Below, piece by piece: positions 3 to 21,365 of a stretch of DNA of 34,953 nt (its first letter is position 1; each line of letters starts with the position of its first letter). Both the position numbers and the translations under genes were made by a program. Below the pieces are notes generated by a model. That model was not told the origin of the DNA and made no database searches. It worked only from the letters and a program-made list of their open reading frames with translations. The stretch comes from Candidatus Latescibacterota bacterium (lineage in GTDB: Bacteria; Latescibacterota; UBA2968), in NCBI GenBank assembly GCA_038279365.1, contig JAYODI010000065.1:1-34953 (forward strand). The letters are read 5' to 3'.

Positions 3-1157
3 GCACCTCTGGATATTACCCTTCACATTTCGCATGGATGTAATATCACATGCACCTATTGTTTTGCTCAAGGTGGCAGTTATGGTGGCAAGGCAACGAT
101 GATGGACTTTGGAACTGCCAAACAAGCTGTGGATTGGGTTTTGGACCAAAGTGAAGAGGTGGGGGCGTGTCAGATTACGTTGTTTGGTGGTGAACCTTTG
201 TTGAATTTGGATTTGATTAAACAGATCGTGCCTTATGCCAAAACACAAGCCAAAGAGAGAGGGATAAAAATTACATTTGGTATGACCACCAATGGCACAT
301 TGCTATCGGGTGAGGCACTGGCGTTTATTATGAAAGAAGATATTGGCGTGATGGTGAGTTTGGATGGCAATGCGGAGACGCACAATCGTATTCGCACCTT
401 TCACGATGGCAGTGATACCTTTGATGTGATTGCAGAAAACACACGGAAGGCCGCTGCACTTCGCCCAAATAAAGTTAAAGTGCGTGCAACGATGACGGCT
501 CATAACCTCGATATAGACCAGATCGCAGAAGACATTTCTCAGTATGGCACGACCACGATTGAAGTCTCTCCTACCATAGAGCACCCGAAAAGCCCAACTG
601 CGATTCGTATGGAACATTTGCCTGAGTTAAAAAAACATTTAAAGCGTGTGAGCAAAACGGAGTTGGCGAAACTGTTAAATGGTGAAAACCAGGCACATGC
701 TTATTTTGTGGGTAAGATTAAGCAGGTGCTTGATCCACATAAAAAAGAGTATGGGTGTGGGGGAGGAAAGACGTTTTACGGTATTGCGGCAGATGGGTCT
801 ATTTATTTTTGTTCGGCATTTGCCAGCAATTCAGAGTTTAAGATGGGGGATGTTTTTTCTGGGCTTAATCCAGAAAAAATGAAACAATTTGATCATGATT
901 TTCAAGTGGACAATCGGCAAACTTGCAAAACGTGTTGGGCGCGTAATTTGTGTGGTGGTGGGTGTGTTTATGATGCACATATGAGTACGGGAAAAGCGGT
1001 AGAGCCCAACCCTGTTTCTTGCGAACAGATTCGTTATGGATATGAATTGGCCATGGGTATGGCATTGGAAATTCAGGAGAATAACCCTGTAATTTTTGAT
1101 GCGCTTTGCCCTGCTGAAACTGTCTTGGGGGAGGTTTGTGATGCACCAAATGCATGA
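3..1157 (+). CDS. Radical SAM/SPASM protein, peptide-maturase (ranthipeptide/SCIFF-maturase-like) type; 5' end lies outside the window
   Basis: The frame is open from nt 3, upstream of the track's start at 99, and reads ITLHISHGCNITCTYCFAQGG (CxxxCxxC at about 39-62). It also has GGEPLLN, TTNGTLL, VSLDG and a seven-Cys SPASM pattern (YGCGGG..IYFC..CKTCWARNLCGGGC..VSC). Confidence 0.92.
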   Translation, partial: APLDITLHISHGCNITCTYCFAQGGSYGGKATMMDFGTAKQAVDWVLDQSEEVGACQITLFGGEPLLNLDLIKQIVPYAKTQAKERGIKITFGMTTNGTLLSGEALAFIMKEDIGVMVSLDGNAETHNRIRTFHDGSDTFDVIAENTRKAAALRPNKVKVRATMTAHNLDIDQIAEDISQYGTTTIEVSPTIEHPKSPTAIRMEHLPELKKHLKRVSKTELAKLLNGENQAHAYFVGKIKQVLDPHKKEYGCGGGKTFYGIAADGSIYFCSAFASNSEFKMGDVFSGLNPEKMKQFDHDFQVDNRQTCKTCWARNLCGGGCVYDAHMSTGKAVEPNPVSCEQIRYGYELAMGMALEIQENNPVIFDALCPAETVLGEVCDAPNA

Positions 1158-2511
1158 TTTTTTAGATATTGATACGCCTGCACAAAACGTGATCCCCATG
1201 CTCAAACAGTTGTATAAAACGGAGTGTCATATTTTTGAGCACCAAGGGCATCATATTCTATTTAATGTGTCATCGGGTAACTTTTTTCAAATTGACCAGG
1301 TTCAAAAAAATGTTGTAGAAGCGTGTTCGGGAAAAACGCTCAATGAAATATTACATGCCTTGCAGTATCAACACACTGAAAAACAAGTTATGAGCGCATT
1401 TAAGGAGCTTTTTGAGGCGGGTATTATTACCGATACACCTTTTGAACGCCCTCCTCAGTTTGCTTTGCCTGATCGGTTAGAAATTGTCCATTTTGATTTT
1501 AATATTACAAATGATACGTTGTTGGGTGTGGAGGAAAATGTTGCTTATATGGATGAAACAGTAGCTTTGGAGGCACTTGCACTTTTATTAAAAGAATCGG
1601 GACGCGTGCGTCGTTGTTCGATTGCGTTTCGGGGTGGTGAACCTTTGTTGAATGCGCCGCTTGTTGAAAAGATTATTGAAGAAGGTTATGCGCAGGCTCA
1701 AAAATTGGGTAAAGAAATTCGCTTTCAAGTGGTTACAGATGCACGTTTGCTCAATCCATCACTTTTTAATCGCTTACAAAAATTGGGTGCTGAAGTGGTG
1801 GTAAAATTTGAGGTAGATGAGCGCCCACCTTTGTTTTGTGGGCAAGGGCCATATAGTTTGTCATCTATTGATATGCCTGAGCATATACAAGAGAAACAAG
1901 CACCGATTGATCTATATTATGTTTTGGATCGACATCGCACAAACTATGCAAAAGATATGCAACAGGTTGTAAATCAATATCCCACGGTTAGAAATGTGTC
2001 TTTTGCATCTGATGAGAGGATGGAACAAGAGGATGTGCCACGTATCAAAGACGGTTATGCACAACTGGCGCGTTATGTTGAAGATCAGGCTTTGGACGGA
2101 CAAAGTGCTTGGATTGATGGCATTGAATCGCACATTTATCAGGTGTTTAATCAGAAAGCCTCTTTCTTGCACAGTGGTATTGGGGTGCGTTCTTTGGCTG
2201 TGGCACCCAATGGTATTTTGCACCCCAGCCTGACACAAGAAAAAACCATTGGAGATGTGTGGCAGGGCATTGATCGCGAAAAGCAGCATGCTTGGATTCG
2301 GGAAACGCAGGTGGACCAATTGGATGGATGCAAAACGTGTTGGGCGCGGCAATTGTGTGGGGGGGCTTGCCGACTCAATACACAATATGGGGCAGATACC
2401 AAACGGTCTACTTGTGAACTGGTGCAGTATAAATATGAGTTGGCAATGAAGACGTGTTTAAATATTGCGGCAAAAGATCAAGATGTTTTGTATCAACGTT
2501 ATGCAGAATAG
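1141..2511 (+). CDS. Degenerate radical SAM/SPASM paralogue with a probable N-terminal RiPP-recognition-like domain; lacks CxxxCxxC
   Basis: GGAGG at 1130-1134 precedes ATG 1141, which overlaps the upstream gene's end. The N-terminal HIFEHQGHHILFNVSSG..LFEAGII resembles the RRE extension of CteB-type maturases. GGEPLLN and CKTCWARQLCGGAC..C are kept, but the SAM-cluster motif position reads NITNDTLLG. Confidence 0.8.
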   Translation: MHQMHDFLDIDTPAQNVIPMLKQLYKTECHIFEHQGHHILFNVSSGNFFQIDQVQKNVVEACSGKTLNEILHALQYQHTEKQVMSAFKELFEAGIITDTPFERPPQFALPDRLEIVHFDFNITNDTLLGVEENVAYMDETVALEALALLLKESGRVRRCSIAFRGGEPLLNAPLVEKIIEEGYAQAQKLGKEIRFQVVTDARLLNPSLFNRLQKLGAEVVVKFEVDERPPLFCGQGPYSLSSIDMPEHIQEKQAPIDLYYVLDRHRTNYAKDMQQVVNQYPTVRNVSFASDERMEQEDVPRIKDGYAQLARYVEDQALDGQSAWIDGIESHIYQVFNQKASFLHSGIGVRSLAVAPNGILHPSLTQEKTIGDVWQGIDREKQHAWIRETQVDQLDGCKTCWARQLCGGACRLNTQYGADTKRSTCELVQYKYELAMKTCLNIAAKDQDVLYQRYAE

Positions 2512-3836: not shown

Positions 3837-3953
3837 TAAAAATGACCTTGGTGTCTAAATGGAGTATAGATTTAAGTAAAGTTTATGTGCTACGAATCCA
3901 ATTGGCTAAACACGAGTTGGCTGTCATATTCTTGTAAATGTGAGGGGTTTGAT

Positions 3954-4796
3954 ATGAAGATATGTGTTGTTCAACCGCGTTATCCTGTTGCGGGAACGAT
4001 TGATTCGGCACGTGCGTGTGTGGCATGGATGCAAATGCAATTGGAGGGTTTGCAACCCCAAGGACAGGATTTGATTGTGTTGCCTGAATATGCCAATGTG
4101 CCGGGGATCAATGATGTAGATACAATGCGAACATTTGCGGAAGGTGTTGGGCGCGCGTTTGTGGCATATGTTGCCGATTCATCGGCACGTTTGTCCTGTT
4201 TGATCACGATGGGTGGGGTGTTTAAAACGGATGTTGGGTGGCAAAATCAGGTGATGGTTTTTGATGGGGGAAAAACGCCGAAATACCTATATAACAAGGT
4301 TCATTTGACAGATGTGGAGTCAAATGGGCTGGGCTTAATACCTGGAAATAAGGTCGGTGTGTTTGATTGGCAAGGCATTCGCTTAGGGTTTGCAGTGTGC
4401 TTTGATATGTATTTTGCCTCGTATTTCGAAGCCCTTGCCAAACACAAGGTTGATGTAATTGTGTGCCCGGGTTATCAACGCTCTGAATCGGGTGACCGTA
4501 TTCGGTTGATTTCGGGGGCGCGTGCATTGGACACGGGTGCTTATGTGGTGCGCAGTAGTTATGCCATGCATACGCCTCAAAAAGGTGGGCATTCGTTGGT
4601 GGCGTCACCCGATGGTAACATTGTGGTGGATGCGGCAGATGCAGTGGGCATGGTGGCAGTTGATATTGATCCTCACCTGAAATTTGTGAAACCGGCGTCT
4701 CATGGACAGCCCGATGTGGAACATCGTGTATTGATAGAGGCCCATGTGCGACCTGAGGTGTATGCAACGGATGGGGTTTCTGATCGGTTATCTTAA
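3954..4796 (+). CDS. Carbon-nitrogen hydrolase (nitrilase superfamily)
   Basis: Glu-Lys-Cys triad motifs LPEY, YNKVHL and VCFD. Start moved to ATG 3954, behind GAGGGG. Confidence 0.88.
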   Translation: MKICVVQPRYPVAGTIDSARACVAWMQMQLEGLQPQGQDLIVLPEYANVPGINDVDTMRTFAEGVGRAFVAYVADSSARLSCLITMGGVFKTDVGWQNQVMVFDGGKTPKYLYNKVHLTDVESNGLGLIPGNKVGVFDWQGIRLGFAVCFDMYFASYFEALAKHKVDVIVCPGYQRSESGDRIRLISGARALDTGAYVVRSSYAMHTPQKGGHSLVASPDGNIVVDAADAVGMVAVDIDPHLKFVKPASHGQPDVEHRVLIEAHVRPEVYATDGVSDRLS

Positions 4797-5346: not shown

Positions 5347-5817
5347 ATGAAACACGCACTATTATTTGGCATAACGTTTTTGCTTGCCGCACCCGCAATG
5401 GGTTCTGTGGCCGATTCGACAGCAGTGGCTGCGAATGTGGCGGCATTGCCCGATGTGAGCAGTTTGATTACACGCATGGTATTGTCATTAGGGGTTGTGT
5501 TGCTGCTGATTTGGGGTGCGGTGCATATCTTGCAACGCATATCGGGGCAATCTGTAAAGCCAGGGGGGGCAGAATCACATATTCGGGTATTGGATCGGAC
5601 ATACTTGGCCCCTAAAAAAGCAGTTTATGTGCTCAAAATTGGCACGCGCGCATTGGCTGTGGGGGTGACGGAAGATCAAATTACCCCACTGGCTGAATTG
5701 GACGCTGACGAAACCAACTTGGCATATCCTGCATCTTTGCCGTCTCAGGGCACGCCTTCTTTTGCCAACTTGCTCAAAGATGTGCGCACCCGCTTTGCAG
5801 GAGGGCAAGCATCATGA
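5347..5817 (+). CDS. fliO: Flagellar biosynthesis protein FliO/FliZ
   Basis: AAGGAG RBS, signal-like N-terminus, one TM segment, IRVLDRTYLAPKKAVYVLKIG..VGVT..ITPL motif; overlaps the fliP start. Confidence 0.85.
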   Translation: MKHALLFGITFLLAAPAMGSVADSTAVAANVAALPDVSSLITRMVLSLGVVLLLIWGAVHILQRISGQSVKPGGAESHIRVLDRTYLAPKKAVYVLKIGTRALAVGVTEDQITPLAELDADETNLAYPASLPSQGTPSFANLLKDVRTRFAGGQAS

Positions 5818-6557
5818 AATCTTTGCGGATTCTTTTGATCGTCATTTTGGCCTTTGTTGTTGTTCCTGATATTGCGGCGCAAGGTTTGCCGCGTATCAGT
5901 TTGGATGTGGCACAATCGAACAATGCAGAAGATGCAGCAGTGACTTTGGAAATTATTTTCATGCTCACTGTGTTGACGCTGGCGCCTTCCATTTTGATTA
6001 TGCTGACGTCATTTACGCGCATTGTGGTGGTGTTGTCGTTTTTGCGTATGGCCATTGGAACACAGCAAATTCCACCAACACAACTGATTGTGGGTTTGGC
6101 TTTGTTTTTGACCATGTTTGTGATGGGCCCTACTTGGGAACGTGTGTATGACAATGCCATTACACCATATTTGGAAGAGCAAATTGATCATACGGTGGCT
6201 TTGGATGAAGCCATGAAGCCGATTCGTGAATTTATGCTCAAGAACACCCGCGAAAAAGATATTGCATTGTTTGTGAAATTGTCGCGTGAAGCACGTCCTC
6301 GCAATGTGGATGAGCTGTCTAATCGGGTATTGATTCCAAGCTTTGTGATTAGTGAGTTGAAGACGGCTTTTCAGATCAGTTTTGTGTTGTTCATTCCGTT
6401 TATCATTATTGATATGGTGGTTTCCAGTACGTTGTTGTCGATGGGTATGATGATGCTCCCACCTGTTACGGTGTCTTTGCCGTTTAAGATTTTGTTGTTT
6501 GTGCTGGTTGATGGGTGGCATTTGATAGTGGAATCTATTGTGATGAGTTTTAAGTAA
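5814..6557 (+). CDS. fliP: Flagellar export gate protein FliP
   Basis: LTSFTRIVVVLSFLR, PSFVISELKTAFQI and GMMMLPP..SLPFKILLFVLVDGW motifs. Confidence 0.97.
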   Translation: MKSLRILLIVILAFVVVPDIAAQGLPRISLDVAQSNNAEDAAVTLEIIFMLTVLTLAPSILIMLTSFTRIVVVLSFLRMAIGTQQIPPTQLIVGLALFLTMFVMGPTWERVYDNAITPYLEEQIDHTVALDEAMKPIREFMLKNTREKDIALFVKLSREARPRNVDELSNRVLIPSFVISELKTAFQISFVLFIPFIIIDMVVSSTLLSMGMMMLPPVTVSLPFKILLFVLVDGWHLIVESIVMSFK

Positions 6558-6626
6558 GGTCGTGAAACGGCAAAAGTGAAACGGCAAATGGAAAGTCTAC
6601 AACGTCAGTTTTAATTGGAGTGAGTT

Positions 6627-6896
6627 ATGACCCCAGAGTATGTGGTGCATCTTGGACAGCAGGCGATTTATTTGATGTTGATGGTTTCGGCACCGATGTT
6701 GATTGCTGGGCTGGTGGTGGGTTTGGGCATTAGCATTTTGCAGGCGGTGACGCAGATTCACGAGGTGACATTGACATTTATTCCGAAGATTTTAGTGGTG
6801 TCGTTGGCTTTGGTGGTGGCGTTGCCTTGGATGATTCAGAAGTTGCTTGATTTTATGATTATGTTGATGCAGCAGATTCCGGCGATTGTAACGTAA
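6627..6896 (+). CDS. fliQ: Flagellar export gate protein FliQ
   Basis: QAVTQIHEVTLTFIPKI motif, 89 aa, GGAG RBS. Confidence 0.96.
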   Translation: MTPEYVVHLGQQAIYLMLMVSAPMLIAGLVVGLGISILQAVTQIHEVTLTFIPKILVVSLALVVALPWMIQKLLDFMIMLMQQIPAIVT

Positions 6897-6977
6897 AAGG
6901 CAAACGGCAAATGTGAAACGGCAAAAAGCCGACAGTAAATTTAAAAATCAGATAAAATTTAACTATAGAAGTGGATT

Positions 6978-7766
6978 ATGAACGCAACGTATCTCGACAT
7001 TTCTGTTGCACAATTTCAGGTGTTTTTGTTGGTGTTTTTGCGCACTTTGGGTGTTTTGGCAATGGCGCCTATTTTTGGGCATCGGGCAGTGATTAGCCAG
7101 GCCAAGGCGGGGTTTGCATTTGCCTTGGCACTTGCTTTGTTTCCTGCTATTCCGATGACATTGGCCGTAACAACCGATTTGGCACCCTATGTGTTTGCTG
7201 CGGTCAAAGAGATTACAATGGGGGTGATGTTTGGGTTTGTGGCGCGGTTGGTTTTTGTGGCGGTACAATTTGCGGGTGAGGTGATTGGTATTGATATCGG
7301 TTTTGGTGTGGTAAACGTGATTGACCCGCTTTCGGCAGAGCAAATTTCTATTATTGGTACGTTTAAGAACTTGATTGCGATGGTCACTTTTTTGATGATT
7401 GATGGGCATCATATTTTATTACAAGCATTGTCTGAGAGTTTTGCGATGGTGCCATTGGGTGGGGTTCAGTTTACGGAACTGTTGGCACAAGGCTTAATTA
7501 ATATGACGGCCCATGTGTTTGTGATGGCCATTAAGTTGGCCGCGCCGATTGTGACATCGTTGTTTTTAACTTCATTGGCATTGGGCATTATGGCACGCAC
7601 GATGCCTCAAATGAATGTGTTTATCGTTGGCTTTCCACTCAAAATAGCAGTGGGAATGGGCATGATGGCTATGGCATTGCCTTTGTTTCAAACGGTTTTG
7701 ATTAAGATGTTTTATGGTTTGGGACCCAATTTGAGTGTTTTGTTGGAACAGATGTATACACCTTAA
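6978..7766 (+). CDS. fliR: Flagellar export gate protein FliR
   Basis: Hydrophobic 262 aa protein with QFAGEVI, DGHH and RTMPQMNVFIVGFPLKI; gene order fits. Confidence 0.95.
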   Translation: MNATYLDISVAQFQVFLLVFLRTLGVLAMAPIFGHRAVISQAKAGFAFALALALFPAIPMTLAVTTDLAPYVFAAVKEITMGVMFGFVARLVFVAVQFAGEVIGIDIGFGVVNVIDPLSAEQISIIGTFKNLIAMVTFLMIDGHHILLQALSESFAMVPLGGVQFTELLAQGLINMTAHVFVMAIKLAAPIVTSLFLTSLALGIMARTMPQMNVFIVGFPLKIAVGMGMMAMALPLFQTVLIKMFYGLGPNLSVLLEQMYTP

Positions 7767-7872
7767 AAGAGGCAGGCAAAAGGCAAAAGTGAAACGGCAA
7801 AAGAGGTATTCCGTTCACTATCGTTGAGGATGATGTCACGTTTATCGATTGCCGTTTGCCATTTCAAATCCT

Positions 7873-8934
7873 ATGGCTGAAGAATCTTTTCAAGAAAAAA
7901 CAGAAGAGGCAACTCCGAAGCGGCGCGATGAAGCGCGTCGCAAGGGGCAAACAGCAAAAAGCCAAGAGTTGAACTCTGCTGTGGTGTTGATGGCAGCACT
8001 GGCGAGTTTGTATGTTTTGGGTGGGATGTTGTTTAACACGTTGTCGGGTTTTACGGCAAGCACGCTTGCACAAAGTCATACCTACGAATTTTCGGTGTTG
8101 AGTGTGCGCACCCATGTTATTGGATGGGCACAAGTGTTTTTTGGTTCTGTGGGGCCTATTCTGTTGGTCATTGGTTTGGCTGCATTTATTGTTTCGATTT
8201 CACAGGTCGGTTTTGTGATGAACGAAGAAGCATTGAATTTTAAGCCCAATCGTTTGGATCCGATGCAGGGGGCTAAGCGCATTTTTTCTATGCGTTCTTT
8301 GGTTGAACTGGTCAAGGGGATTATCAAAATTACGATTGTGGGTTTGATCAGTTATTGGGTGATTGCTCCAGAAATGCCTCGCATTGCATTGCTTACAGAC
8401 GCTGGGGTGGGTGATATTTTTACATACACTGGCGTGATGGTGTTTAAAGTGGGCATGTATACGGCGTTGGCGTTGTTGGTTATGGCCATTTTGGATTATG
8501 CTTATCAGCGTTTTGAGTTTAATAAGAGCATTCGGATGACCAAACAAGAAGTAAAAGAAGAAAGCAAACAAACAGAAGGTGACCCACAAGTGCGCATGCG
8601 GATTCGGTCTTTACAACGCGAAAATGCACGCCGACGCATGATGGATGACGTGCCAGAGGCCGATGTGGTGATTACCAACCCAACGCACTTTGCTGTGGCG
8701 TTGAAATACGATATGGACACGATGGCAACACCGATGGTGGTGGCCAAGGGTAAAAACCTAATTGCACAAAAAATTAAAGAAATTGCCCGAGAATCGGGTG
8801 TGCCAATGGTGGAAAACAAACCTTTGGCACAAGCTTTATTTAAATCGGTAGAGATTGGGCAAGGCATCCCTGAAGAGTTATATCGGGCAGTGGCTGAGGT
8901 CTTGGCGTATGTGTTCCGATTGAAGGGAAAATGA
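7873..8934 (+). CDS. flhB: Flagellar export switch protein FlhB
   Basis: EKTEEATPKR N-terminus, EGDPQ and the NPTH autocleavage motif. Start set at ATG 7873. Confidence 0.97.
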   Translation: MAEESFQEKTEEATPKRRDEARRKGQTAKSQELNSAVVLMAALASLYVLGGMLFNTLSGFTASTLAQSHTYEFSVLSVRTHVIGWAQVFFGSVGPILLVIGLAAFIVSISQVGFVMNEEALNFKPNRLDPMQGAKRIFSMRSLVELVKGIIKITIVGLISYWVIAPEMPRIALLTDAGVGDIFTYTGVMVFKVGMYTALALLVMAILDYAYQRFEFNKSIRMTKQEVKEESKQTEGDPQVRMRIRSLQRENARRRMMDDVPEADVVITNPTHFAVALKYDMDTMATPMVVAKGKNLIAQKIKEIARESGVPMVENKPLAQALFKSVEIGQGIPEELYRAVAEVLAYVFRLKGK

Positions 8935-9029
8935 TCAAGTTAAAAATAGAACGTGGAAGATGACACTTTTGAAGTTTTGCGCCCCAATTTCGACGATGTC
9001 ATGATTGTGGGGTGTCAATGGCTCTGAGC

Positions 9030-9059
9030 TTGACTAAATAGTATAAATCGCAGTATATT
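9030..9059 (+). promoter_or_regulatory. Possible internal sigma-70-type promoter upstream of flhA
   Basis: TTGACT (9030-9035), 18-nt spacer, TATATT (9054-9059) in the 155-nt flhB-flhA gap. Confidence 0.4.
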
Positions 9060-9089
9060 ATCCTACCTTGGCTCCTTTGGAGAAAACGC

Positions 9090-11153
9090 ATGAAAGAGTT
9101 TTTTGAACGTATTGCAAAATATACCGATGTGCTGTTTGCTTTGGCATTGATCGGGATGATTTCGGTGATGATCATTCCGATGCCTCCTGGTTTTTTAGAT
9201 GTTTTGTTGGCTTTTAATATTGCATTTAGTTTGCTTGTGTTGTTGATGACGATTTATATCACCAACCCATTGCAGTTGTCTGTATTTCCTGGTTTGTTGT
9301 TGGTGTTGACCCTTTTCCGACTGTCGCTTAATGTGGCCACCACCCGATTGATTTTGGGTGAGGGGTATGCGGGCGATGTGATTACCGCCTTTGGACAGTT
9401 TGTGGTAAAGGGTAATTATATTTTGGGTTTGGTGGTTTTCCTGATTATTGTGATTATCCAGTTTGTGGTGATCACAAAGGGTGCTGGACGTGTGGCTGAA
9501 GTGGCGGCTCGGTTTACCTTGGATGCGATGCCGGGTAAACAAATGGCCATTGATGCCGACTTGAATGCGGGTTTGATTACGGAAGAAGAGGCGCGAACAC
9601 GTCGTTCGAACATCTCGCGTGAAGCCGATTTTTATGGTGCGATGGATGGTGCCAGCAAGTTTGTGCGTGGTGATGCTATTGCGGGTATTTTGATTACGTT
9701 GGTAAATATTTTGGGTGGTTTGGGCATTGGGGTATTGCAGCGGGGCATGAGCGCGGCTTCTGCTGCTGAGACGTATACGATTTTGACCATTGGTGATGGT
9801 CTGGTTTCGCAAATACCGGCCTTGATTACCTCTATTGGCGCAGGTATTATTGTCACACGTTCGACATCGGACGACAACTTGGGTACCGACCTTGGACGTG
9901 AGTTGACCTCTAAACCGCGTGCCATTATGGTGGCTTCGGGTGTGTTGTTGGCGTTTGCGGCGGTGCCTGGTTTGCCGAGTTTACCCTTCTTGGTTTTGGC
10001 CATCCTCTCTGGTTTCGTGGCTTATTTTGCACAACGTGAATTGAATGCAGGTGAAACAGAAGCTGCCGCTGTTGCAGAAGCTGCCGAAGTAAAGACAGAA
10101 GAAAAACCTGAAGACTATTTGCACTTAGACCCATTGGAAATTACGTTGGGTTATGGTTTGATTCCTCTTGTGGATTCGGCACAAGGTGGGGATTTGCTCG
10201 ATCGCATTACGATGTTGCGAAAATCGACGGCGCTCGAATTGGGCGTGGTGATTCCACCCATTCGCATTCGGGATGACATTACCTTTAGCCCCAATCAATA
10301 TGCGATTAAAATTCGTGGCGTACGCGTTGCTGGGGCAGAGCTTCAACCGCGCCATTTAATGGCGATGGACCCAGGTTATGTAGAAGGTGAAGTGGAAGGC
10401 ACCAATACCATTGAACCGGCATTTGGATTGCCTGCCAAATGGATTGCTGAATCGGCACGTGAGCAAGCTGAGTTGTTGGGCTATACGGTGGTGGAACCCC
10501 CTGATGTTTTGGCTACGCATTTGACAGAAGTGCTCAAGTCACATGCCCACGAAATTTTGACACGCCAAGATACACAAAGTTTGATTGACCGTGTGAAAGA
10601 GAGCAGCCCAACGGTTGTTGAAGAGTTGGTACCCGATTTGTTGAATGTAGGTGGGGTGCAAAAGGTGCTTGAACATTTGTTGCAAGAACAAGTGCCTGTG
10701 CTGGATATGCAAACCATTTTGGAAACACTGGCTGATTATGCCAACTTGACCAAAGACCCCGAAATTTTGACCGAGTATGTACGCACGGCGCTTGCGCGAA
10801 CCATTTGCCAAAAATATTTGAATGACGAAGGCAATATTCCTGTGCTGACAGTGGACCCGCAATTGGAACAACAAATTGCCAATGCGATGCAAAGTACACC
10901 GGGTGGCATTAAAGTGGTGTTGTCGCATGATGTGACCAATCGGTTGTTGGAGCGCCTGGCAGAAAGCATTGACGGGATGGTGAACAACAATCAACAACCC
11001 GTGGTATTGACGGCTCCTAATGTGCGCCCAGCATTGCGACGCTTGACTGAAACGACGTTTCCAAGTTTGGCGGTGTTGTCTTATAATGAGATTGTTCCTG
11101 GTGTGGATGTTTATTCGGTGGGGATGGTGTCATTGGATGCGGTGCCTGCGTAA
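9090..11153 (+). CDS. flhA: Flagellar export protein FlhA
   Basis: RVAEVAARFTLDAMPGKQMAIDADL and FYGAMDGASKFVRGDAIAG (FHIPEP motifs). Confidence 0.98.
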   Translation: MKEFFERIAKYTDVLFALALIGMISVMIIPMPPGFLDVLLAFNIAFSLLVLLMTIYITNPLQLSVFPGLLLVLTLFRLSLNVATTRLILGEGYAGDVITAFGQFVVKGNYILGLVVFLIIVIIQFVVITKGAGRVAEVAARFTLDAMPGKQMAIDADLNAGLITEEEARTRRSNISREADFYGAMDGASKFVRGDAIAGILITLVNILGGLGIGVLQRGMSAASAAETYTILTIGDGLVSQIPALITSIGAGIIVTRSTSDDNLGTDLGRELTSKPRAIMVASGVLLAFAAVPGLPSLPFLVLAILSGFVAYFAQRELNAGETEAAAVAEAAEVKTEEKPEDYLHLDPLEITLGYGLIPLVDSAQGGDLLDRITMLRKSTALELGVVIPPIRIRDDITFSPNQYAIKIRGVRVAGAELQPRHLMAMDPGYVEGEVEGTNTIEPAFGLPAKWIAESAREQAELLGYTVVEPPDVLATHLTEVLKSHAHEILTRQDTQSLIDRVKESSPTVVEELVPDLLNVGGVQKVLEHLLQEQVPVLDMQTILETLADYANLTKDPEILTEYVRTALARTICQKYLNDEGNIPVLTVDPQLEQQIANAMQSTPGGIKVVLSHDVTNRLLERLAESIDGMVNNNQQPVVLTAPNVRPALRRLTETTFPSLAVLSYNEIVPGVDVYSVGMVSLDAVPA

Positions 11154-11197
11154 TGGGTGTATTCAAAAAAAAAGGCGAAGTTTGGGATTGATTTTCT

Positions 11198-12391
11198 ATG
11201 CGCATTAAAAAATACATTGCAGCCTCTATGCCAGAAGCACTCAAGCAGGTTAAAGCCGATTTGGGGCCACAGGCTGTTATTTTGAACACACGCACTTTGC
11301 GCAAAAGTGGTAAGTTGGGTCTTACGGGCAAAGGGCAGGTGGAGGTGACGGCTGCCATTGATGAAGGCGGTGGTGCGCTGTTGAAGAAAGTCCCCGCAAA
11401 AAAAGCGGTTGTGTCAACGCCTGCAGAAGCTGGTTCATCTACCCTTCCCAAACCTATCTCTCGGCCTACGTCTCAAGCTTTGTCTGCTTCTGTGCCTGAT
11501 CCCAAATGGGCAGATCGCATTACACAAAAGTTAGAAGGTTTAGAAGCTGCATTGCGAACGGCCCCCTCAAGACAGAGCGAGAAGTTGTTGCTTCCTGGTG
11601 CGCTTGATCCATTGGCGCAACAGTTGCGGTTGGCGGGTTTGTCGGATGCACTTGCACAAGATGTGCTTAAAACACTGCTTTTGGATCCTGGCCCCAACGG
11701 ACTGAAAGAATTGCCCCCTCTTCAAAAACGTGCGGGGCAGTTGATGAGCCGATGGTTTGAAAGCCCGCAGCCCACACGATTGGGCAAAAATGTGCGCAGT
11801 GTGGTGGCCTTGGTTGGCCCTGCTGGGGTGGGGAAAACGACAGCGGCGGCACGAATGGCGGCTCATTTTTCAGACGCAGGTGCTCGGGTGGTGTTGGTGG
11901 CAGCAGATACGGATCGTGTCGGTGGCTTGGAGCAAATAAGGGCCTATGCGGGTATTTTGGGTGTGCCCATCGAAGTGGTCTATACCTCAGATGAAATGGG
12001 CGATTTGATTCGGGATCGCCGAGATGTGGATTTGATGTTGATTGATACAGGCGGGGTGGGTCCATTGGATCAGGAGCGCTTGTTTCAACTGAATGAATTG
12101 TTAAAAGAAGCGGCACCGAATGAAGTGCATTTGACGCTTTCGGCAACCGCAGACTTGCATCAAATGTTGGATGTGGTGGCAGCATTTGAGCCAGTGGGTG
12201 TGAATCGGTTGTTATTGACCAAAATTGATGAGACGGCGCGGTTGGGGGCTGTGTGTGCAGTGGCTGTTGCGTCTAAGTTGCCATTGTCTTATCTGACAAA
12301 TGGGCGGGCGGTGCCCGGAGATTTTCAGCCAGCAGATCCGAATGTGTTGGTTGCGTGCCTTTTTGAGGGGGTTGCCCATGTCAGCAGATGA
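11198..12391 (+). CDS. flhF: SRP-family GTPase FlhF
   Basis: MRIKKY..MPEAL..VKADLG N-terminus, GPAGVGKTT, DTGG and TKIDE; sits between flhA and flhG. Confidence 0.92.
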   Translation: MRIKKYIAASMPEALKQVKADLGPQAVILNTRTLRKSGKLGLTGKGQVEVTAAIDEGGGALLKKVPAKKAVVSTPAEAGSSTLPKPISRPTSQALSASVPDPKWADRITQKLEGLEAALRTAPSRQSEKLLLPGALDPLAQQLRLAGLSDALAQDVLKTLLLDPGPNGLKELPPLQKRAGQLMSRWFESPQPTRLGKNVRSVVALVGPAGVGKTTAAARMAAHFSDAGARVVLVAADTDRVGGLEQIRAYAGILGVPIEVVYTSDEMGDLIRDRRDVDLMLIDTGGVGPLDQERLFQLNELLKEAAPNEVHLTLSATADLHQMLDVVAAFEPVGVNRLLLTKIDETARLGAVCAVAVASKLPLSYLTNGRAVPGDFQPADPNVLVACLFEGVAHVSR

Positions 12392-13202
12392 TGCACGTGC
12401 AACGGTGTGGTCTATTACAAGCGGTAAGGGTGGGGTGGGCAAAACCACATTAAGCGTAAATTTGGGTATTGCCTTGGCCAAGCAGGGGTTGCAGGTGTTG
12501 CTGATGGATGCCGATTTGGGTTTGGCCAATGTGGATATTTTATTGGGTGTTTCTCCCGAACGTACGGTTCAAGATTTGCTTTCTGGTGAAGCCTCGGCTT
12601 TGGATGTGGTTGTTGAAGGCCCTGAAGGGTTGTCTATTTTACCTGCTGCTTCAGGCATGGCAGAACACGATGCTTGGCAGATGGAAGATCGCCATCGTTT
12701 GGCAGAAGAATTGGGGCGGTTGGAGCGGGGATATGATCTGATTTTAATAGATACAGGTGCAGGTATTTCTTCTAAAGTAACCGATTTTGTCATGGCATCT
12801 GATCGCATGTTTGTGGTTGCAGTGCCAGAACCCACCTCTATTGCAGATGCCTACGCCATGGTGAAGGTGTGTCATCAAAATGCTCCTGCCCCGAAGATGG
12901 GTTTGATTGTGAATCGGGCACGTTCTCCAAGAGAAGCATTTGCATTACATCAGAAATTTGACCAAATTGTAGAGCGGTTTTTGGGTATTCATGTGGATCG
13001 TTCGGGATATGTGTTGGAAGATATTGCAGTAGAACAAGCCTCACGATCGCAGAACCCTGTTTTATTGTCACACCCAAACTCTGCTGCTGCAAAATGCATT
13101 GAGCAATTGGCAAAGGAGTTATCGGGTGGATCAGAGGTCCTAAAAAGACAAGGGCCGGGTTTGTTTGATAAGTTAATGAGTCGTATTATCGCAGATATTT
13201 AA
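12378..13202 (+). CDS. flhG: MinD-like ATPase FlhG/FleN
   Basis: SGKGGVGKT, DADLGLANVD, DTGAG and PEPTSIADAY. ATG 12378 lies behind GAGGGGG and overlaps the flhF end. Confidence 0.93.
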   Translation: MSADDARATVWSITSGKGGVGKTTLSVNLGIALAKQGLQVLLMDADLGLANVDILLGVSPERTVQDLLSGEASALDVVVEGPEGLSILPAASGMAEHDAWQMEDRHRLAEELGRLERGYDLILIDTGAGISSKVTDFVMASDRMFVVAVPEPTSIADAYAMVKVCHQNAPAPKMGLIVNRARSPREAFALHQKFDQIVERFLGIHVDRSGYVLEDIAVEQASRSQNPVLLSHPNSAAAKCIEQLAKELSGGSEVLKRQGPGLFDKLMSRIIADI

Positions 13203-13270
13203 AGTCACTCTACATCAATAGATCAAAAAACTCAATGCTGAGGTTTTTGATTTGCCCTAACGAGAGTTTT

Positions 13271-14038
13271 ATGGGAAAACAAAGAGCACAGTCGGCATAT
13301 CAAAAAACCCAATCGGCCAATGCACAAGATAAGCGCGAAGGCCAATTGATAGAGTATTTGCCATTGGTGAAATATATTGCTGGACGCATTGCAATTGGGT
13401 TGCCCAAGTCTGTTGAGTTGGACGATTTGATTAATGCTGGCGTCGTGGGCTTGATTGAGGCTTATAATAATTTTGATACCAGCAAAGGTGTCAAATTTGA
13501 ATCATATGCGTCTATGCGTATTCGTGGTTCTATTTTGGATGAGTTGCGTGCTGTTGATTGGGCACCGCGTTCAACCCGTGCCAAGTCGCGCGAAATGGAG
13601 CGGTCTATTTCGTCATTGGAAAACAAATTGGGCAGATCTCCCACGGAAGAAGAAATTGCTGAAGATCTCGATGTGTCTTTGGGCGATTTGTATAAGCTGC
13701 TGGATGACTTAAGCTCGACGACATTGTTGTCTTTGGATGAACTGTCGTATGGTTCTGATGAAGACAAACCTGTGCCTTTGCTTGATACTTTAAAGTCTAA
13801 GGATCGCACAGATGCATTGGATCAACTCGAGCGCGATGAAATGCGCAATTTGTTGGTGGATGCTATTGAATATTTGACGGAGCAAGAGCGGTTGGTAATT
13901 GCTTTGTATTATTATGAAGAACTGACATTAAAAGAAATTGGTCAGGTGATGGAATTGTCGGAATCGCGTGTGTCTCAAATTCATACAAAGTCTGTTTTGA
14001 GCTTGCGCGCCAAATTGCGCATGCGGTTGTTGCAATAA
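13271..14038 (+). CDS. fliA: Flagellar sigma factor sigma-28 (FliA/WhiG family)
   Basis: RIRGSILDELRAVDW and LYYYEELTLKEIG..SESRVSQIH. Start set at ATG 13271. Confidence 0.96.
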   Translation: MGKQRAQSAYQKTQSANAQDKREGQLIEYLPLVKYIAGRIAIGLPKSVELDDLINAGVVGLIEAYNNFDTSKGVKFESYASMRIRGSILDELRAVDWAPRSTRAKSREMERSISSLENKLGRSPTEEEIAEDLDVSLGDLYKLLDDLSSTTLLSLDELSYGSDEDKPVPLLDTLKSKDRTDALDQLERDEMRNLLVDAIEYLTEQERLVIALYYYEELTLKEIGQVMELSESRVSQIHTKSVLSLRAKLRMRLLQ

Positions 14039-14114
14039 ACACTATGAAACGGCAGACGGCAGACGGCAAAAAATTCTTTAAAATTCACCTGTTTTTAAAT
14101 GAGTATTTGATGAC

Positions 14115-15062
14115 GTGGCAAATTTAGCCCAAACATTTGCACAAGTACAGAGCCCAGAATTGAGCCAAAACCGATCACAGCGTTTGCGGCAGATTACAGA
14201 AAAGATTATTGGTTTGCCTACGTTGCCTACCGTGGTAACACAGTTGATTTCTGTGGTGGGTGATCCAGCATCTTCGGCGCGCCAAATTGCGCGGTTGGTT
14301 TCGACCGATCAGGCTTTGACTGCTAAAATTTTGAAAGTGGCCAACTCGTCGTTTTATGGGTTTTCGCGAGAGATCGCAACGGTGCAGTTGGCCATTGTGG
14401 TTTTGGGCATTGAGATGGTGAAGAATATCGGGTTAAGTGTGGCGGTGCTGAAGCGATTTTCCGAAGGGAAAGAACACCGATTGTTTGATCGCCAAAGATT
14501 TTGGGCCCACGCAATTGGGTGTGGTGTGGCTGCGCGCATGTTGGCACTTAAGTTTAAGGATCGTCGTATTGCCGACGAAGCTTTTGTGGCGGGTGTGTTG
14601 CACGATATTGGCAAGTTGATTTTGATTGAATATTTTAATGAAGAGTTTATCACTGTGTTGGAAAAAGCTGAGGTCGAAGGATTGGCCATTGTGGATGCCG
14701 AGGAGGAAGTTTTGGGGGTATCCCATGCCGATGTCGGGGCATGGCTGGCTGAAAAATGGAATTTGCCAGCCCATTTGGTAGAGGCCATTGCCTATCATCA
14801 TCGCCCCTTTGAGCCCGATGCCGAAAACCCTCAGGATTTGGTTATTTTGACCCATATGGGTGATGCCTTGATTCGGCATTTGCGTGTGGGCAACAGTGGT
14901 GATCAACAACTGGCCTCTTTGCATCCAAAGGTGGCAGATATGTTTAAAAAAGGGCGTAAAATTTCGGATGAGGCCTTATTTGAAGAGTTGGGTATCGGTT
15001 TGGAAAGTGAGTTGGAAACCGCACAAGTATTTAAAGATTTGGATGATGGTACTGAAAATTAA
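14115..15062 (+). CDS. HDOD-domain protein
   Basis: LPTLP..DQALTAKILKVANSSFYG, GVLHDIGKL, HADVGAWLAEKWNLP..IAYHH. Confidence 0.92.
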   Translation: MANLAQTFAQVQSPELSQNRSQRLRQITEKIIGLPTLPTVVTQLISVVGDPASSARQIARLVSTDQALTAKILKVANSSFYGFSREIATVQLAIVVLGIEMVKNIGLSVAVLKRFSEGKEHRLFDRQRFWAHAIGCGVAARMLALKFKDRRIADEAFVAGVLHDIGKLILIEYFNEEFITVLEKAEVEGLAIVDAEEEVLGVSHADVGAWLAEKWNLPAHLVEAIAYHHRPFEPDAENPQDLVILTHMGDALIRHLRVGNSGDQQLASLHPKVADMFKKGRKISDEALFEELGIGLESELETAQVFKDLDDGTEN

Positions 15063-15080
15063 TCGAATGATGATGGGTTT

Positions 15081-15956
15081 ATGAATCAAGATATTTTAAA
15101 ACGCGCGTCTGAATTGGCACACAAAATGGATGCCAAACCCGACCAAATGGCTGCATTGTTTGCTGATTTGGTCGATTTGGCACAGCAACAAGTGGCAGAA
15201 ATTGAGACGGTGCGCAGTGAACGAGATAAGGCCGATAGAAATTTGAAAGTGTCCCAGGCCCAATTGGTGCAGTCGGGTAAGATGGCGGCTGTAGGGCAGT
15301 TGGCTGCGGGAGTGGCCCATGAAGTGAATAACCCTTTGCAGATTATTTTGAGCCGGGTGCAGTTGTTGATGATGCGCAATCAGGGGCAAGATACTTTGGT
15401 GCAAGATTTGCAATTGATCGAAGCCAATGTGAAACGAATTTCGCGCATTATTCGAAGTTTGCTCGATTTTGCACGGCACAACAATGGTGAGGAAGATTGG
15501 AAAGTTGTTGCATTGATACCGCTTATTGAACAAACGGCAGAGTTGATGCGGCATTTGATGGAAAAATCGGGTATTGCGTTGACGGTGACAAATCTTGCAA
15601 GTGAGTCACCTATTTTGTATGGCAATGTGGGTGAAATCGAACAAGTGTTTTTGAACTTGCTGATCAATGCGCTTCAGGCAACACCTAAAAATGGTCGTAT
15701 TGATATATGTGCTGAATGCGTGGGTGAATATGTGGTGGTGCGGGTTTCCGATACGGGTAAGGGGATTGCGCCAGAAAATTTATCTCGCATTTTTGAACCT
15801 TTTTTTACCACCCGTGAAAACCAAGGTGGAACAGGATTGGGGTTGGCCATTATTTCGGGGATTGTGGATAAGCATCGGGGTAAAATAGAGGTGGAAAGTG
15901 TAGAGGGTGAGGGAACCACATTTATTTTGACATTTCCGGTTGATAAGAGTGGATAA
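15081..15956 (+). CDS. Cytoplasmic histidine kinase (HisKA + HATPase) with no recognisable sensor domain
   Basis: H box AHEVNNPL, N box NLLINA, G1 DTGKGI, F box FEPFFTT, G2 GTGLGL. Only a short coiled-coil precedes the H box. Confidence 0.92.
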   Translation: MNQDILKRASELAHKMDAKPDQMAALFADLVDLAQQQVAEIETVRSERDKADRNLKVSQAQLVQSGKMAAVGQLAAGVAHEVNNPLQIILSRVQLLMMRNQGQDTLVQDLQLIEANVKRISRIIRSLLDFARHNNGEEDWKVVALIPLIEQTAELMRHLMEKSGIALTVTNLASESPILYGNVGEIEQVFLNLLINALQATPKNGRIDICAECVGEYVVVRVSDTGKGIAPENLSRIFEPFFTTRENQGGTGLGLAIISGIVDKHRGKIEVESVEGEGTTFILTFPVDKSG

Positions 15957-15957
15957 T

Positions 15958-16470
15958 ATGCAAGGTATAGAAGTGCTCTATTGGGCCTTGTCGGTTCTTT
16001 TTTGTTTGGCTTTGGTTTTTGCCATTTTGTTTTGGTGCCGAAGTTGGCGAAATGAAGAACGCGAAACCAATTTGCGTCATTTGCAGTTATTGGCCCGTGA
16101 AGTGAAGCGTTTGGCTGAGGCAGTTGATGGATTGGAACATACGGCTGCTTCGTTGCAAATGGCAGATGAACAATTTTCACAACAGATTGAAAACATTCGC
16201 AATTTGGGGCGCGATTTAAAACGTCAACTGACCCCATCGGTTGTTCCTGCTCCTCAAACTGTGGCCTCAGAATCTAAGCCTGCTCCTATGCCATCAGCAC
16301 CCAAAGAGGCAGTAACTTTTCAAGAATCGTCAGAAGATCGTTATGCACAAGCACGAGATTTGTTGCTTGCTGGCCAACCACAAACAGATGTGGCACGACA
16401 ATTGGATTTGGGAACGGCTGAAGTGAGAATGATTGCACGGTTGCTCGAAAAAACAGGTGATGCATCATGA
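15958..16470 (+). CDS. Membrane-anchored coiled-coil protein with C-terminal HTH-like motif, probably flagellum-associated
   Basis: N-terminal TM helix, coiled coil, Pro-rich linker and YAQARDLL..G....VARQLDLG.AEV.MI tail, resembling small proteins often found after fliA. Confidence 0.65.
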   Translation: MQGIEVLYWALSVLFCLALVFAILFWCRSWRNEERETNLRHLQLLAREVKRLAEAVDGLEHTAASLQMADEQFSQQIENIRNLGRDLKRQLTPSVVPAPQTVASESKPAPMPSAPKEAVTFQESSEDRYAQARDLLLAGQPQTDVARQLDLGTAEVRMIARLLEKTGDAS

Positions 16471-16940
16471 TGCGCGTTGTTTATTTTTTTCTTGTGGTTG
16501 TGATGATGGGATGTAATAAAAATGAGGCGCCTACGGGTGTGTCGCGTACGGATGTCGAAGGCGTTTGGGCGGCTTCATTGGGTACGGTGAATTTGATGGG
16601 GCGCACACTGGTTGGAGAAAGCGATTGGCAGTTTAACCGCAGTACATTTGAGATTGCTTTTCTCGACCCACCTGTTGGACATGCAGAACGCATATCGGGT
16701 GATTGGAAGTTTAAAGATGGTAAAATGGTCATGACATTACGCAGTTCATTTCCCATTGTGGGAGATGTGGGCGCGAGCGATACGATGTTTGTTTCCATTT
16801 TGAATAATCAGATGTCATTGCAGACGCTTTCGGGTAGCAATATTTTGTTGGTCAAACTGCGTTCTTTTGCACAGGCTGTGTTACCTGAGCCCATTTGGGT
16901 TTTTCTGCCTGCCTTTTTACCTTCGTTTTTTGGTGCGTAG
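16467..16940 (+). CDS. Putative lipoprotein of unknown function
   Basis: Hydrophobic leader ending MMGC (non-canonical lipobox), a VEGVW motif suggesting a lipocalin-like barrel, and an ATGA overlap with the upstream gene. Confidence 0.6.
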   Translation: MMRVVYFFLVVVMMGCNKNEAPTGVSRTDVEGVWAASLGTVNLMGRTLVGESDWQFNRSTFEIAFLDPPVGHAERISGDWKFKDGKMVMTLRSSFPIVGDVGASDTMFVSILNNQMSLQTLSGSNILLVKLRSFAQAVLPEPIWVFLPAFLPSFFGA

Positions 16941-17077
16941 AGGGCATTGAAATAAAATGGTCGTACAGGGATCGTTTTTGCCTCTTTGTTTGTTGGATTT
17001 ACATGTTATTGTTTGGGTGCGCCTCTTGAAAGTTGGTTTCTTGGGCGCACTTTTGTTTTTATGATGGTGAGCTTCTC

Positions 17078-20552: not shown

Positions 20553-21365
20553 TTATTGTTCGTATAATACAGGGTTAATGGGGGTGTTGATGATTTCGCC
20601 AATTTTGGCACCGGGGCAACAGCCTTCCCAGTCGCGCTGTTGGTTTTCGTTTTCGGGTTTTTTGAGGCGCATGTCGATGTCCATGTAGATGATGGTCATG
20701 ACTTCGCGGGGTTTGTCGGTTTGGTTGTGGTCGGCTCGGTGGAAGGTCCAGCCATAGTGAAAGCTGACTTCGCCGAGGTCGTAGGGTTCTTGAATATAAG
20801 GGAATTGGGCATCGGAGAGGGCGGTTTGGATTTTTTGTTCGCTTTCGTCGCTGATGCTTAAGTCGCGGCCAAAGGTGAAGGTGTGGCTGCCTTCGGCAAA
20901 GGCCATGGGGCCCATTTCTAAGGGTGTTTTTTGAAGGGGGATCCAAACGGTACAGCATTTTTCGGTGGCCAAGGGCCAGTAAAATTGATCGGCGTGCCAG
21001 GGGGTAAACCCACCACCTGCTTCTTTGTAGAGGGCTTGGTCGTGATACATGCGCACACCACGTGTGCCCATGAGTTCTGTGGCAATGCGTGGAAGCCGTT
21101 TGCCAAAGACAAATTCTTTTACAAGATCGCTTTTTGTCCAAAGGTTGCCTATTTGGATGAAGGCTTTTTTATAGGTGGAGCGTTCAGACATGGGCTGGGT
21201 GTTTGTGTTGAGCTCGTGTACTTTTTGGGTAAATTCTTGGCCGTAGTGTGACAATACTTGTGGAGATAAGACGTCTTTTAGTTTGATAAAACCGCGTTTT
21301 TGAAAAGATGCGATTTGCTCGGGCGTGACAGGATAATGTGTGTCGATATCCAGTGTTGTTGCCAT
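20553..21365 (-). CDS. PhyH-family Fe(II)/2-oxoglutarate dioxygenase
   Basis: TPWHAD (HxD), TVWIPL, GSH and distal TFHRA. Confidence 0.9.
   Translation of the reverse strand: MATTLDIDTHYPVTPEQIASFQKRGFIKLKDVLSPQVLSHYGQEFTQKVHELNTNTQPMSERSTYKKAFIQIGNLWTKSDLVKEFVFGKRLPRIATELMGTRGVRMYHDQALYKEAGGGFTPWHADQFYWPLATEKCCTVWIPLQKTPLEMGPMAFAEGSHTFTFGRDLSISDESEQKIQTALSDAQFPYIQEPYDLGEVSFHYGWTFHRADHNQTDKPREVMTIIYMDIDMRLKKPENENQQRDWEGCCPGAKIGEIINTPINPVLYEQ

Follow-up and report, generated by a model that had tools for sequence, protein, structure and literature searches.

A selected pseudo-radical SAM/SPASM protein encoded between a peptide maturase gene and a GT4 glycosyltransferase gene in Candidatus Latescibacterota

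The second gene of a 34,953-nt stretch of DNA (the window) from a Candidatus Latescibacterota metagenome-assembled genome encodes a selected pseudoenzyme, a full-length protein with a fold of the CteB type that has no site for the S-adenosylmethionine (SAM)-cleaving [4Fe-4S] cluster. This gene (gene 2) lies between a gene for a radical SAM/SPASM enzyme (gene 1) and one for a glycosyltransferase of family GT4, in what looks like a σ54-controlled cluster resembling those for peptides that are ribosomally synthesised and post-translationally modified (RiPPs). The reading that we favour, with roughly even confidence, is that gene 2 is an adaptor that holds the leader of the precursor peptide for a partner enzyme and performs no radical chemistry itself; that the GT4 is the enzyme so served is a plausible candidate assignment to which we give somewhat less than even weight. 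Features of the locus, in window coordinates, are:

3..1157, forward strand: gene 1, radical SAM/SPASM peptide maturase, a 5'-truncated fragment of 384 amino acids (open reading frame, ORF)
39..62, forward strand: CNITCTYC, the SAM-cluster motif of gene 1
1141..2511, forward strand: gene 2, pseudo-radical SAM/SPASM protein of 456 amino acids (ORF, Shine-Dalgarno sequence, CteB profile match, AlphaFold2 model)
1210..1416, forward strand: winged-helix domain of gene 2 resembling a RiPP recognition element (RRE), residues 24-92 (AlphaFold2 model, PqqD matches in orthologues)
1489..1548, forward strand: degenerate SAM-cluster site of gene 2, HFDFNITNDTLLGVEENVAY in place of CxxxCxxC (alignment)
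1630..1653, forward strand: retained RGGEPLLN of gene 2 (GGE motif), residues 164-171 (alignment)
2167..2232, forward strand: lost ligands of the first auxiliary cluster (AuxI) of gene 2, LHSGIG (Cys replaced by Ser345) and GILHPS (Cys absent) (alignment)
2329..2421, forward strand: SPASM remnant of gene 2, CKTCWARQLCGGAC (C397, C400, C406, C410) plus C425
2576..3775, forward strand: GT4 glycosyltransferase (Pfam Glycos_transf_1, 9e-38)

The likeliest start of gene 2 is the ATG at position 1141, 6 bases past the Shine-Dalgarno sequence GGGGGAGG; the longest reading of the frame begins with TTG at 1096. From the ATG the gene, which shares 17 nt with the end of gene 1, continues uninterrupted to 2511, in agreement with the original prediction, made from the letters alone, of a full-length gene overlapping its neighbour. 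The two proteins are paralogues, with 26% identity across 311 residues (E 4e-27). In the alignment HFDFNITNDTLLG of gene 2 stands opposite the CxxxCxxC of gene 1, while LHSGIG and GILHPS stand opposite GCGGG and IYFC, which confirms the replacements first read as NITNDTLLG, HSGIG and ILHPS. The features said to have been kept, namely GGEPLLN, CKTCWARQLCGGAC and the last cysteine (C425), were also found in place. The window protein retains five of the seven SPASM cysteines, four of them ligands of the second auxiliary cluster (AuxII) and one of AuxI. The AuxII ligands C397, C400, C406 and C425 were assigned by analogy with PapB, for which a published study (PMC10470005) defines the variants delta-AC1 (C352, C370 and C421) and delta-AC2 (C408, C411, C417 and C440); the earlier attribution of CxxCx5C and the last cysteine to AuxII agrees with these definitions.

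Scores against protein families reflect the same pattern. Gene 2 matched Pfam Radical_SAM (PF04055) at 26.4 bits (E 9.2e-06), below the gathering score of 29.5, and PqqD/RRE (PF05402) at 13.5 bits (E 0.092), below the gathering score of 23.4, while the SPASM domain TIGR04085 was matched at 31.1 bits, above the cut-off of 27. The QhpD family (TIGR03906) gave 113.9 bits for gene 2 and 244.4 bits for gene 1, the cut-off of 453 being reached by neither, and the SCIFF maturase family TIGR03974 (cut-off 425) gave 97 and 269 bits respectively. Among features of the ESM Atlas, gene 2 yielded generic radical SAM/SPASM clusters only.

Orthologues of gene 2 were collected by three routes. A word-indexed search recovered 20 (P0001-P0020, 98% to 30% identity), HMMER, run exhaustively over 1.84 billion representatives, returned 17 proteins at E<=1e-30, and searches of genomes added copies from G001, G003, G005, G037, G077 and G079 (the last being locus L022). 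The resulting alignment held 32 full-length orthologues of 28-98% identity, the fragments P0010, P0019, P0051 and P0053 and the cut copy of G005 having been set aside as partial; several of the 32 rows are near-copies, such as P0001, which is 98% identical to gene 2 of the window. All three cysteines of the radical SAM (RS) site were present in none of the 32, the first RS position was never a cysteine, and the RS region contained at most one cysteine in any orthologue, the segment being deleted in most. Each of the four AuxII cysteines was present in 32/32. The three AuxI cysteines were found in 16, 11 and 27 of the 32 (the LHSGIG site in 16 and the GILHPS site in 11), and the glutamate of the GGE motif in 28. 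Absence of CxxxCxxC was recorded for 41 of 192 collected proteins, a count that beyond the gene 2 family comprises N-terminally cut entries of 328-352 amino acids and fragments, which were left uncounted.

Judged from these alignments, the motif pattern of gene 2 is backed by homology, common to all orthologues and no chance feature. Loss of the SAM cluster, originally proposed for gene 2, is universal across the family, and the protein is predicted to be unable to bind a SAM-cleaving cluster. The claim that most AuxI ligands had gone holds for this lineage, where two of three are missing, and other lineages vary; AuxI loss is secondary and lineage-specific, having affected the clade of the window and that of G003. 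Retention of AuxII, which had also been proposed, extends to the whole family.

The GGE glutamate in 28/32 orthologues, a barrel under purifying selection and invariant residues specific to the family (among them G236 and S239 in GPYSLSS, K191 and E329) would be compatible with a protein that is still an enzyme, either by performing chemistry of a non-radical kind at its former active site or by binding a cluster through non-canonical ligands. An RS region with no more than one cysteine in each of the 32 proteins, deleted in most of them, speaks against this, as does the finding of no alternative conserved Cys/His triad among the invariant columns, and we regard continued catalysis as highly improbable.

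Selection on gene 2 was estimated by the method of Nei and Gojobori. Against the 89%-identical copy at L100, a metagenome contig and the single close locus that a scan of metagenomes produced, the ratio of non-synonymous to synonymous substitution rates (dN/dS) was 0.096 at a dS of 0.59, and the same comparison gave 0.082 for gene 1. By region the ratio was 0.070 for the RRE, 0.098 for the barrel and 0.097 for SPASM; against G001 (70% identity) it was 0.154 at a dS of 1.3, which is near saturation. Loss of the catalytic cysteines, with further erosion of AuxI in the window lineage, is what would be expected were gene 2 simply a dying duplicate of gene 1. Gene 2 is under purifying selection, with a ratio like that of gene 1, and simple decay is therefore refuted. 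Further points against decay are the full-length frame in all orthologues across 28-98% identity, none of which has an intact CxxxCxxC, the retention of AuxII and of invariant surface residues, and a tree in which gene 2 is no recent copy of gene 1. Simple decay was ruled out by the selection and conservation data, and the chance that we still allow it is negligible.

In a quick tree of 57 rows (SH-aLRT support, midpoint root), gene 1 proteins of loci with both genes were mixed with radical SAM proteins encoded without gene 2 (solo proteins) in one clade of 99% support. Gene 2 fell in a separate clade, also of 99% support, with two small groups that bear the RS motif, G028/P0055 and the Poribacteria proteins L023/P0059. 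A single loss of the RS site and two losses both fit this tree. The G028 (L016:7897-9375) and P0055 proteins represent a reciprocal degenerate form at the position of gene 2, in which CxxxCxxC and the AuxI cysteines are kept and the AuxII CxxCx5C and last cysteine are gone. Since a protein at this position can lose either end, the function common to the group would appear to reside in the fold and the RRE.

The fold of gene 2 was predicted with AlphaFold2 from 20 orthologues, at a mean predicted local distance difference test score (pLDDT) of 82.4 and a predicted template modelling score of 0.82. The model has N-terminal strands at residues 24-26, 29-34, 37-42 and 48-51 followed by helices at 53-61, 67-73 and 80-92, then six strand-helix units between 117 and 319 that form a partial (beta/alpha)6 barrel, and a C-terminal helical SPASM region. 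The best structural matches (Foldseek) were to chains of CteB (5why and 5wgg), at template modelling scores of 0.70-0.77 over 443-457 columns and a match spanning the full length, N-domain included; TigE and anSME followed. A gene 2 profile searched against the PDB likewise gave CteB at E 2.3e-57 over residues 29-447, again including the N-domain. The PqqD Pfam model was matched at E<=0.1 by 9/25 gene 2 orthologues (best 3.4e-05), the window protein having an E-value of 0.092. The RRE-like N-terminus proposed from the sequence is thus supported by the predicted fold, the CteB match and the PqqD matches.

Since the window has neither the peptide gene nor the N-terminus of gene 1, binding of the leader was modelled with the L100 proteins, using a 25-row alignment for gene 2 and a 7-row alignment for the precursor. 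The complex scored 0.65, compared with 0.30 for the best of three controls. The mark adopted for such scores is reached by 116/157 solved complexes and by 2/215 mismatched pairs, and the runs agreed in at least 39% of contacts. In the model the leader motif of the peptide (residues 1-8 and 10) contacts L100 gene 2 at residues 39, 46-51, 55, 89-95, 336-339 and 437-457, with the lowest expected errors between peptide residues 5-7 and gene 2 residues 47-50. Contacted positions that are invariant or nearly so in the family include F48, F49, L90, V335 and N337. The model supports binding of the precursor leader by gene 2 on the RRE strand, residues 46-51, and with it the original suggestion that peptide recognition has been kept.

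The peptide in question is predicted from relatives. In L100 and in G001 (same genus as the window) the gene order is the C-terminus of a σ54 enhancer-binding protein, a spacer of ~0.5 kb, a small ORF, gene 1, gene 2 and GT4. The small ORF encodes 55-56 amino acids behind an AGGAG Shine-Dalgarno sequence and lies downstream of a conserved TGG-N9-TTGT. Differences between the L100 and G001 copies sit on third codon positions, which together with the Shine-Dalgarno sequence argues that the precursor is a real gene. Homologous small ORFs were found directly upstream of gene 1 in G003, L022, G028 and G037 and upstream of the radical SAM gene in 18/18 Latescibacterota loci with a single such gene (L025-L042); none was recognised in L044, L048 or two Poribacteria loci. 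Common to the predicted precursors are the motif h-x-x-I/V-N-(R/G/A) at the N-terminus and a single conserved cysteine, in the context L-S-C in the precursors of four gene-2 loci.

In 10/19 loci examined, the 260 nt before the peptide ORF contain a σ54-type promoter, TGG-N9-T(G/T)C, often as the complete element TGGCACG-N4-TTGCA. σ54 activators are encoded upstream of the peptide ORFs, every locus having such a gene. The regulator of G016 is a fusion of 1641 amino acids that joins kinase, STAND, TPR, GAF and σ54-activator domains; its homologues in G037 and G028 are ORFs of 1628 and 1638 amino acids. No protease or exporter gene was detected in the cluster by Pfam scan. The whole looks like a σ54-controlled RiPP-like system comprising an enhancer-binding protein, a one-Cys precursor, gene 1, gene 2 and the GT4, and it is apparently an undescribed family; a small literature search, judged by title and abstract, found no paper on this peptide system.

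Gene 1, which would act on this peptide, has an open 5' end only as a consequence of the contig beginning at the window start. The window is the beginning of contig C48 in G000, an assembly of 6.0 Mb in 199 contigs (98.5% complete, 7.4% contamination), and the RRE of gene 1 with ~100 N-terminal residues falls beyond the contig edge. Neither this N-terminus nor a peptide gene was found by tblastn over the rest of G000; a DNA contig of run X5 extends ~540 nt past the window start. The fragment carries GGEPLLN as well as CNITCTYC, and its seven SPASM cysteines are residues 252, 270, 308, 311, 317, 321 and 340; both the motif and the seven cysteines had been predicted and all were located in the translation. 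Pfam Radical_SAM (PF04055) was matched at 56.7 bits against the gathering score of 29.5. The best NCBIfam matches were to PapB (280 bits, 2.6e-83), the SCIFF maturase (269), a nif11-type maturase (249) and QhpD (244.4), all under their cut-offs; that of the PapB family (NF047865) is 340 bits, and the 280 bits came from a truncated fragment. The full-length L100 orthologue matched CteB (5wgg) at E 3.1e-61, and orthologues of gene 1 have their own RRE and a complete AuxII site. By analogy with its nearest named relatives, from which the chemistry is taken, we infer that gene 1, the active radical SAM/SPASM enzyme with its full set of motifs, makes a cysteine thioether.

An orthologous GT4 follows gene 2 directly at every locus with sequence there: L100 (94% identity), G005 (59%), G037 (46%), G003 (48%, split by a frameshift) and L022 (39%), with G001 retaining the first 25 amino acids before the contig ends. 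Of 168 genomes from the phylum, seven contain proteins of the gene 2 type (G000, G001, G003, G005, G037, G077 and G079), and there are GT4 orthologues at E<=1e-45 in G000, G003, G005, G037, G077 and G079; in the seventh genome with gene 2, G001, the contig is cut where the GT4 would stand. G008 has a partial match to the GT4 (residues 9-209) next to a run of 261 N, neither gene 1 nor gene 2 being close by; this could reflect a remnant or a gap in the assembly. A GT4 also follows the gene of the gene 2 clade in two Poribacteria loci, where those proteins still have the cysteine motif, and a different GT4 occupies that position in G028. The GT4 has no RRE or any extra domain. Gene 1 is upstream of gene 2 at all seven loci with upstream sequence (G000, L100, G001, G003, G037, G077 and G079), at variable spacing: the 17-nt overlap is found in G000, L100 and G001, 857 bp separate the two genes in G037, and an entire GT9 gene intervenes in G077 and G079. 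On this distribution, gene 2 is apparently co-inherited with the GT4 and tied to it more tightly than to gene 1.

Three observations at these loci may be added. The GT9 (heptosyltransferase-type) of G079 (L022:4190-6157) and of G077 (L103:113-1477) is fused to an RRE-like N-domain, which matched the gene 2 profile with an hhalign probability of 95.6%. The Poribacteria loci have a separate GT9 beside the gene-2-like gene, after an ORF of 359 amino acids that by eye resembles a sugar kinase. In G003 (L014:6947-8355 and 9784-10952, a single-contig assembly of 8.4 Mb), gene 1 and the GT4 are split by frameshifts and gene 2 is intact; the frameshifts may be errors of long-read assembly or real damage.

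The conserved order also bears on the partnership that had been suggested originally, in which gene 2 pairs with gene 1 in a heteromeric maturase as a scaffold; in another form of this reading, AuxII would be a dedicated shuttle that gives the electron back to the SAM cluster of gene 1 once each thioether is made. Such a pairing would account for the 17-nt overlap in G000, L100 and G001, for the presence of gene 1 upstream in 7/7 loci and for the invariance of the AuxII cysteines in 32/32 orthologues, and PapB, the best match of gene 1, requires intermolecular electron transfer for reactivation, likely through its second auxiliary cluster (PMC10470005). Against it, gene 1 has a complete AuxII and an RRE of its own, adjacency is loose elsewhere (857 bp in G037, an intervening GT9 in G077 and G079), and the G028/P0055 variant is without AuxII. 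Relatives of gene 1 also occur without gene 2: the gene 1 of G037 is 66% identical to the solo radical SAM protein of L039, compared with 43% to that of L100, the peptides of G037 and L039 are of the same subtype, and no gene 2 or GT4 was found in the 8 kb examined on either side of solo loci. Solo enzymes this similar, with like peptides, imply that gene 1 can do without gene 2 among these relatives. We consider the heteromer unlikely. The part of the original interpretation that stands is a non-catalytic protein with its RRE and AuxII kept; the part that fares less well is gene 1 as its partner, since the linkage points to the GT4.

A third possibility is that gene 2 serves no enzyme and acts as a leader-binding chaperone, immunity or regulatory protein that sequesters or stabilises the precursor or the product, or reports its level, for example to the σ54 activator. 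It is favoured by the RRE being the most constrained part of the protein (dN/dS 0.070), by the leader binding seen in the complex model, by a cluster with no protease or exporter gene and by the σ54 activator at every locus. It leaves unexplained both the strict co-inheritance with the GT4 and the retention of barrel and AuxII under equal constraint (0.097-0.098), and we judge it improbable.

Co-inheritance with the GT4, together with the occurrence of gene 1 relatives without gene 2, is the reason for which a leader-holding adaptor is favoured over an obligate partner of gene 1. In the scheme proposed, gene 1 would install a radical modification, presumably a thioether, on the cysteine of the precursor. 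Gene 2 would clamp the precursor leader on its RRE strand and hold the peptide for a partner, most likely the RRE-less GT4 encoded right behind it, with the AuxII cluster mainly structural or serving as a redox link. A variant of this scheme that we hold only as a tentative possibility makes gene 2 a radical SAM maturase turned leader clamp, a [4Fe-4S] hand-over subunit that couples the radical step of gene 1, in which the thioether forms, to the glycosylation step of the GT4, with AuxII as a redox or conformational link.

Several points weigh against the adaptor. The genomes with gene 2 and GT4 are relatives and not independent samples, albeit spanning three families, and the sequence of the GT4 is generic: the best match in NCBIfam is a glycosyltransferase of the XrtA system with 160 bits, where the cut-off is 409, and the enzyme could act on a glycan instead of a peptide. 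The 17-nt overlap in the genus of the window fits co-translation of the two genes as a pair. Invariance of the AuxII site points to redox activity, for which a simple adaptor would have no use, and with AuxII lost in G028/P0055 the wider clade has no one cluster common to all its members. The precursor itself has a low pLDDT (37-41) in the complex model, which makes the fold of the peptide uncertain, and the proteins modelled were those of L100, whose gene 2 is 89% identical to that of the window. The passing score may also echo a memory in the prediction model of the solved complex of CteB with its peptide (entry 5WGG).

Evidence of transcription is weak. Near-identical contigs covering gene 2 were found in two metatranscriptome libraries from two studies, X19 (1426-1656 and 1914-2133) and X20 (1571-1737), with 0-1 differences; contigs of this kind cannot prove transcription, DNA carry-over being possible.

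Among solved structures the closest relative of both genes is CteB (PDB 5WGG/5WHY), the thioether-forming SCIFF maturase from Clostridium thermocellum, with which they share the three-part arrangement of RRE, radical SAM barrel and SPASM region. Unlike CteB, gene 2 is without CxxxCxxC and has one of the three AuxI ligands here, and unlike SCIFF the precursors have one conserved cysteine and not six. PapB, a ranthipeptide maturase that forms Cys-Asp/Glu thioethers, acts alone, no natural cluster-less partner being described in the parts consulted of its report (PMC10470005).

Gene 2 also resembles in kind the pseudo-radical SAM proteins of the GG-Bacteroidales type (TIGR04150/IPR026418), which are radical SAM-like, have no cluster motif and are encoded beside an active radical SAM enzyme and a precursor. 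Gene 2 stands beside an active radical SAM paralogue and a precursor in the relatives too, the peptide gene of the window being off the contig. TIGR04150 proteins have been reported beside the radical SAM protein TIGR04148 and a precursor in Bacteroides (PMC4573289). A 2023 survey (PMC10352776) states that pseudo-radical SAM proteins (IPR026418) have no experimentally assigned function and are thought to partner radical SAM enzymes, and it lists glycosyltransferases in some of the clusters concerned. The TIGR04150 model ('pseudo_rSAM_GG', 407 positions) is absent from the 22 NCBIfam hits of gene 2 at E<=0.1, and its sole matches in a search of G000, of 25.2 and 16.6 bits against a cut-off of 250, fall on contigs other than that of the locus. 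Gene 2 differs from TIGR04150 in its phylum and in its descent from the CteB/QhpD-like branch; it has an RRE, and its AuxII site is invariant. The novelty implied by the original prediction is accordingly reduced, since pseudo-radical SAM partners are a named family; what is new is a pseudo-radical SAM protein from a lineage unrelated to that of the Bacteroidales, the kind itself being known in silico.

A parallel in concept comes from inactive, RRE-bearing partners of other RiPP enzymes, such as the E1-like McbB of the microcin B17 synthetase, a dead paralogue that still binds the leader and presents the peptide to the catalytic subunits. McbB differs from gene 2 in fold and chemistry and is not known to have an Fe-S site.

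If the interpretation is correct, the graded loss of clusters in the gene 2 family (RS gone in all, AuxI in some, AuxII in none) would amount to a natural dissection of what a SPASM protein needs for binding as opposed to catalysis, and a lineage of this kind is more informative than one dead gene. The finding bears on the role of the second auxiliary cluster and of the non-catalytic parts of SPASM maturases. It also brings to light one-Cys, σ54-controlled peptides that are multi-copy in Latescibacterota, a phylum not known to have cultured representatives, and that are apparently undescribed.

These multi-copy peptides, of ~60 amino acids, are encoded directly upstream of the solo radical SAM/SPASM gene at L017:6556-6735 and in the same place in L025-L042. 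They begin M-x-T-R-R-K-L-T-L-I/V-N-G and continue through one cysteine to V-P-P-L-P-F-P and an acidic tail; they too appear to be an undescribed RiPP family. Up to 6 radical SAM matches were counted per Latescibacterota genome, and the solo peptide/radical SAM loci of G016 are flanked by the 1641-residue activator fusion and a second σ54 activator.

In the remainder of the window, a carbon-nitrogen hydrolase gene of the nitrilase superfamily (3885-4796) stands between the GT4 and fliO. It had no match in the related loci searched by tblastn, G005 included, and is therefore probably outside the cluster. The junction of gene 2, GT4, FliO and FliP is common to the window and G005. Directly downstream of the cluster is a flagellar export and regulation operon (5347-18388), identified by Pfam, the gene names being an interpretation. 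It encodes FliO, FliP, Bac_export_1 (FliR-type), FlhB, FlhA and an SRP54-type GTPase, along with a MinD/ParA-type ATPase, a sigma-70-family factor, an HDOD protein, a histidine kinase and a protein resembling FliK. The stretch 20553-27308 encodes two dioxygenases of the PhyH type, a second GT4 and an APH-type kinase, and an ORF of 882 amino acids there gave no Pfam match at E<=1e-5. The long ORFs of the window lie mostly on the forward strand, and GC skew is strongly positive in each 1-kb bin of 1-34953, from 0.04 to 0.37. On the reverse strand, an ORF at 29551-30813 joins sigma-70 regions 2 and 4, resembling those of an extracytoplasmic function sigma factor, to a FliG C-terminal domain, an unusual fusion.

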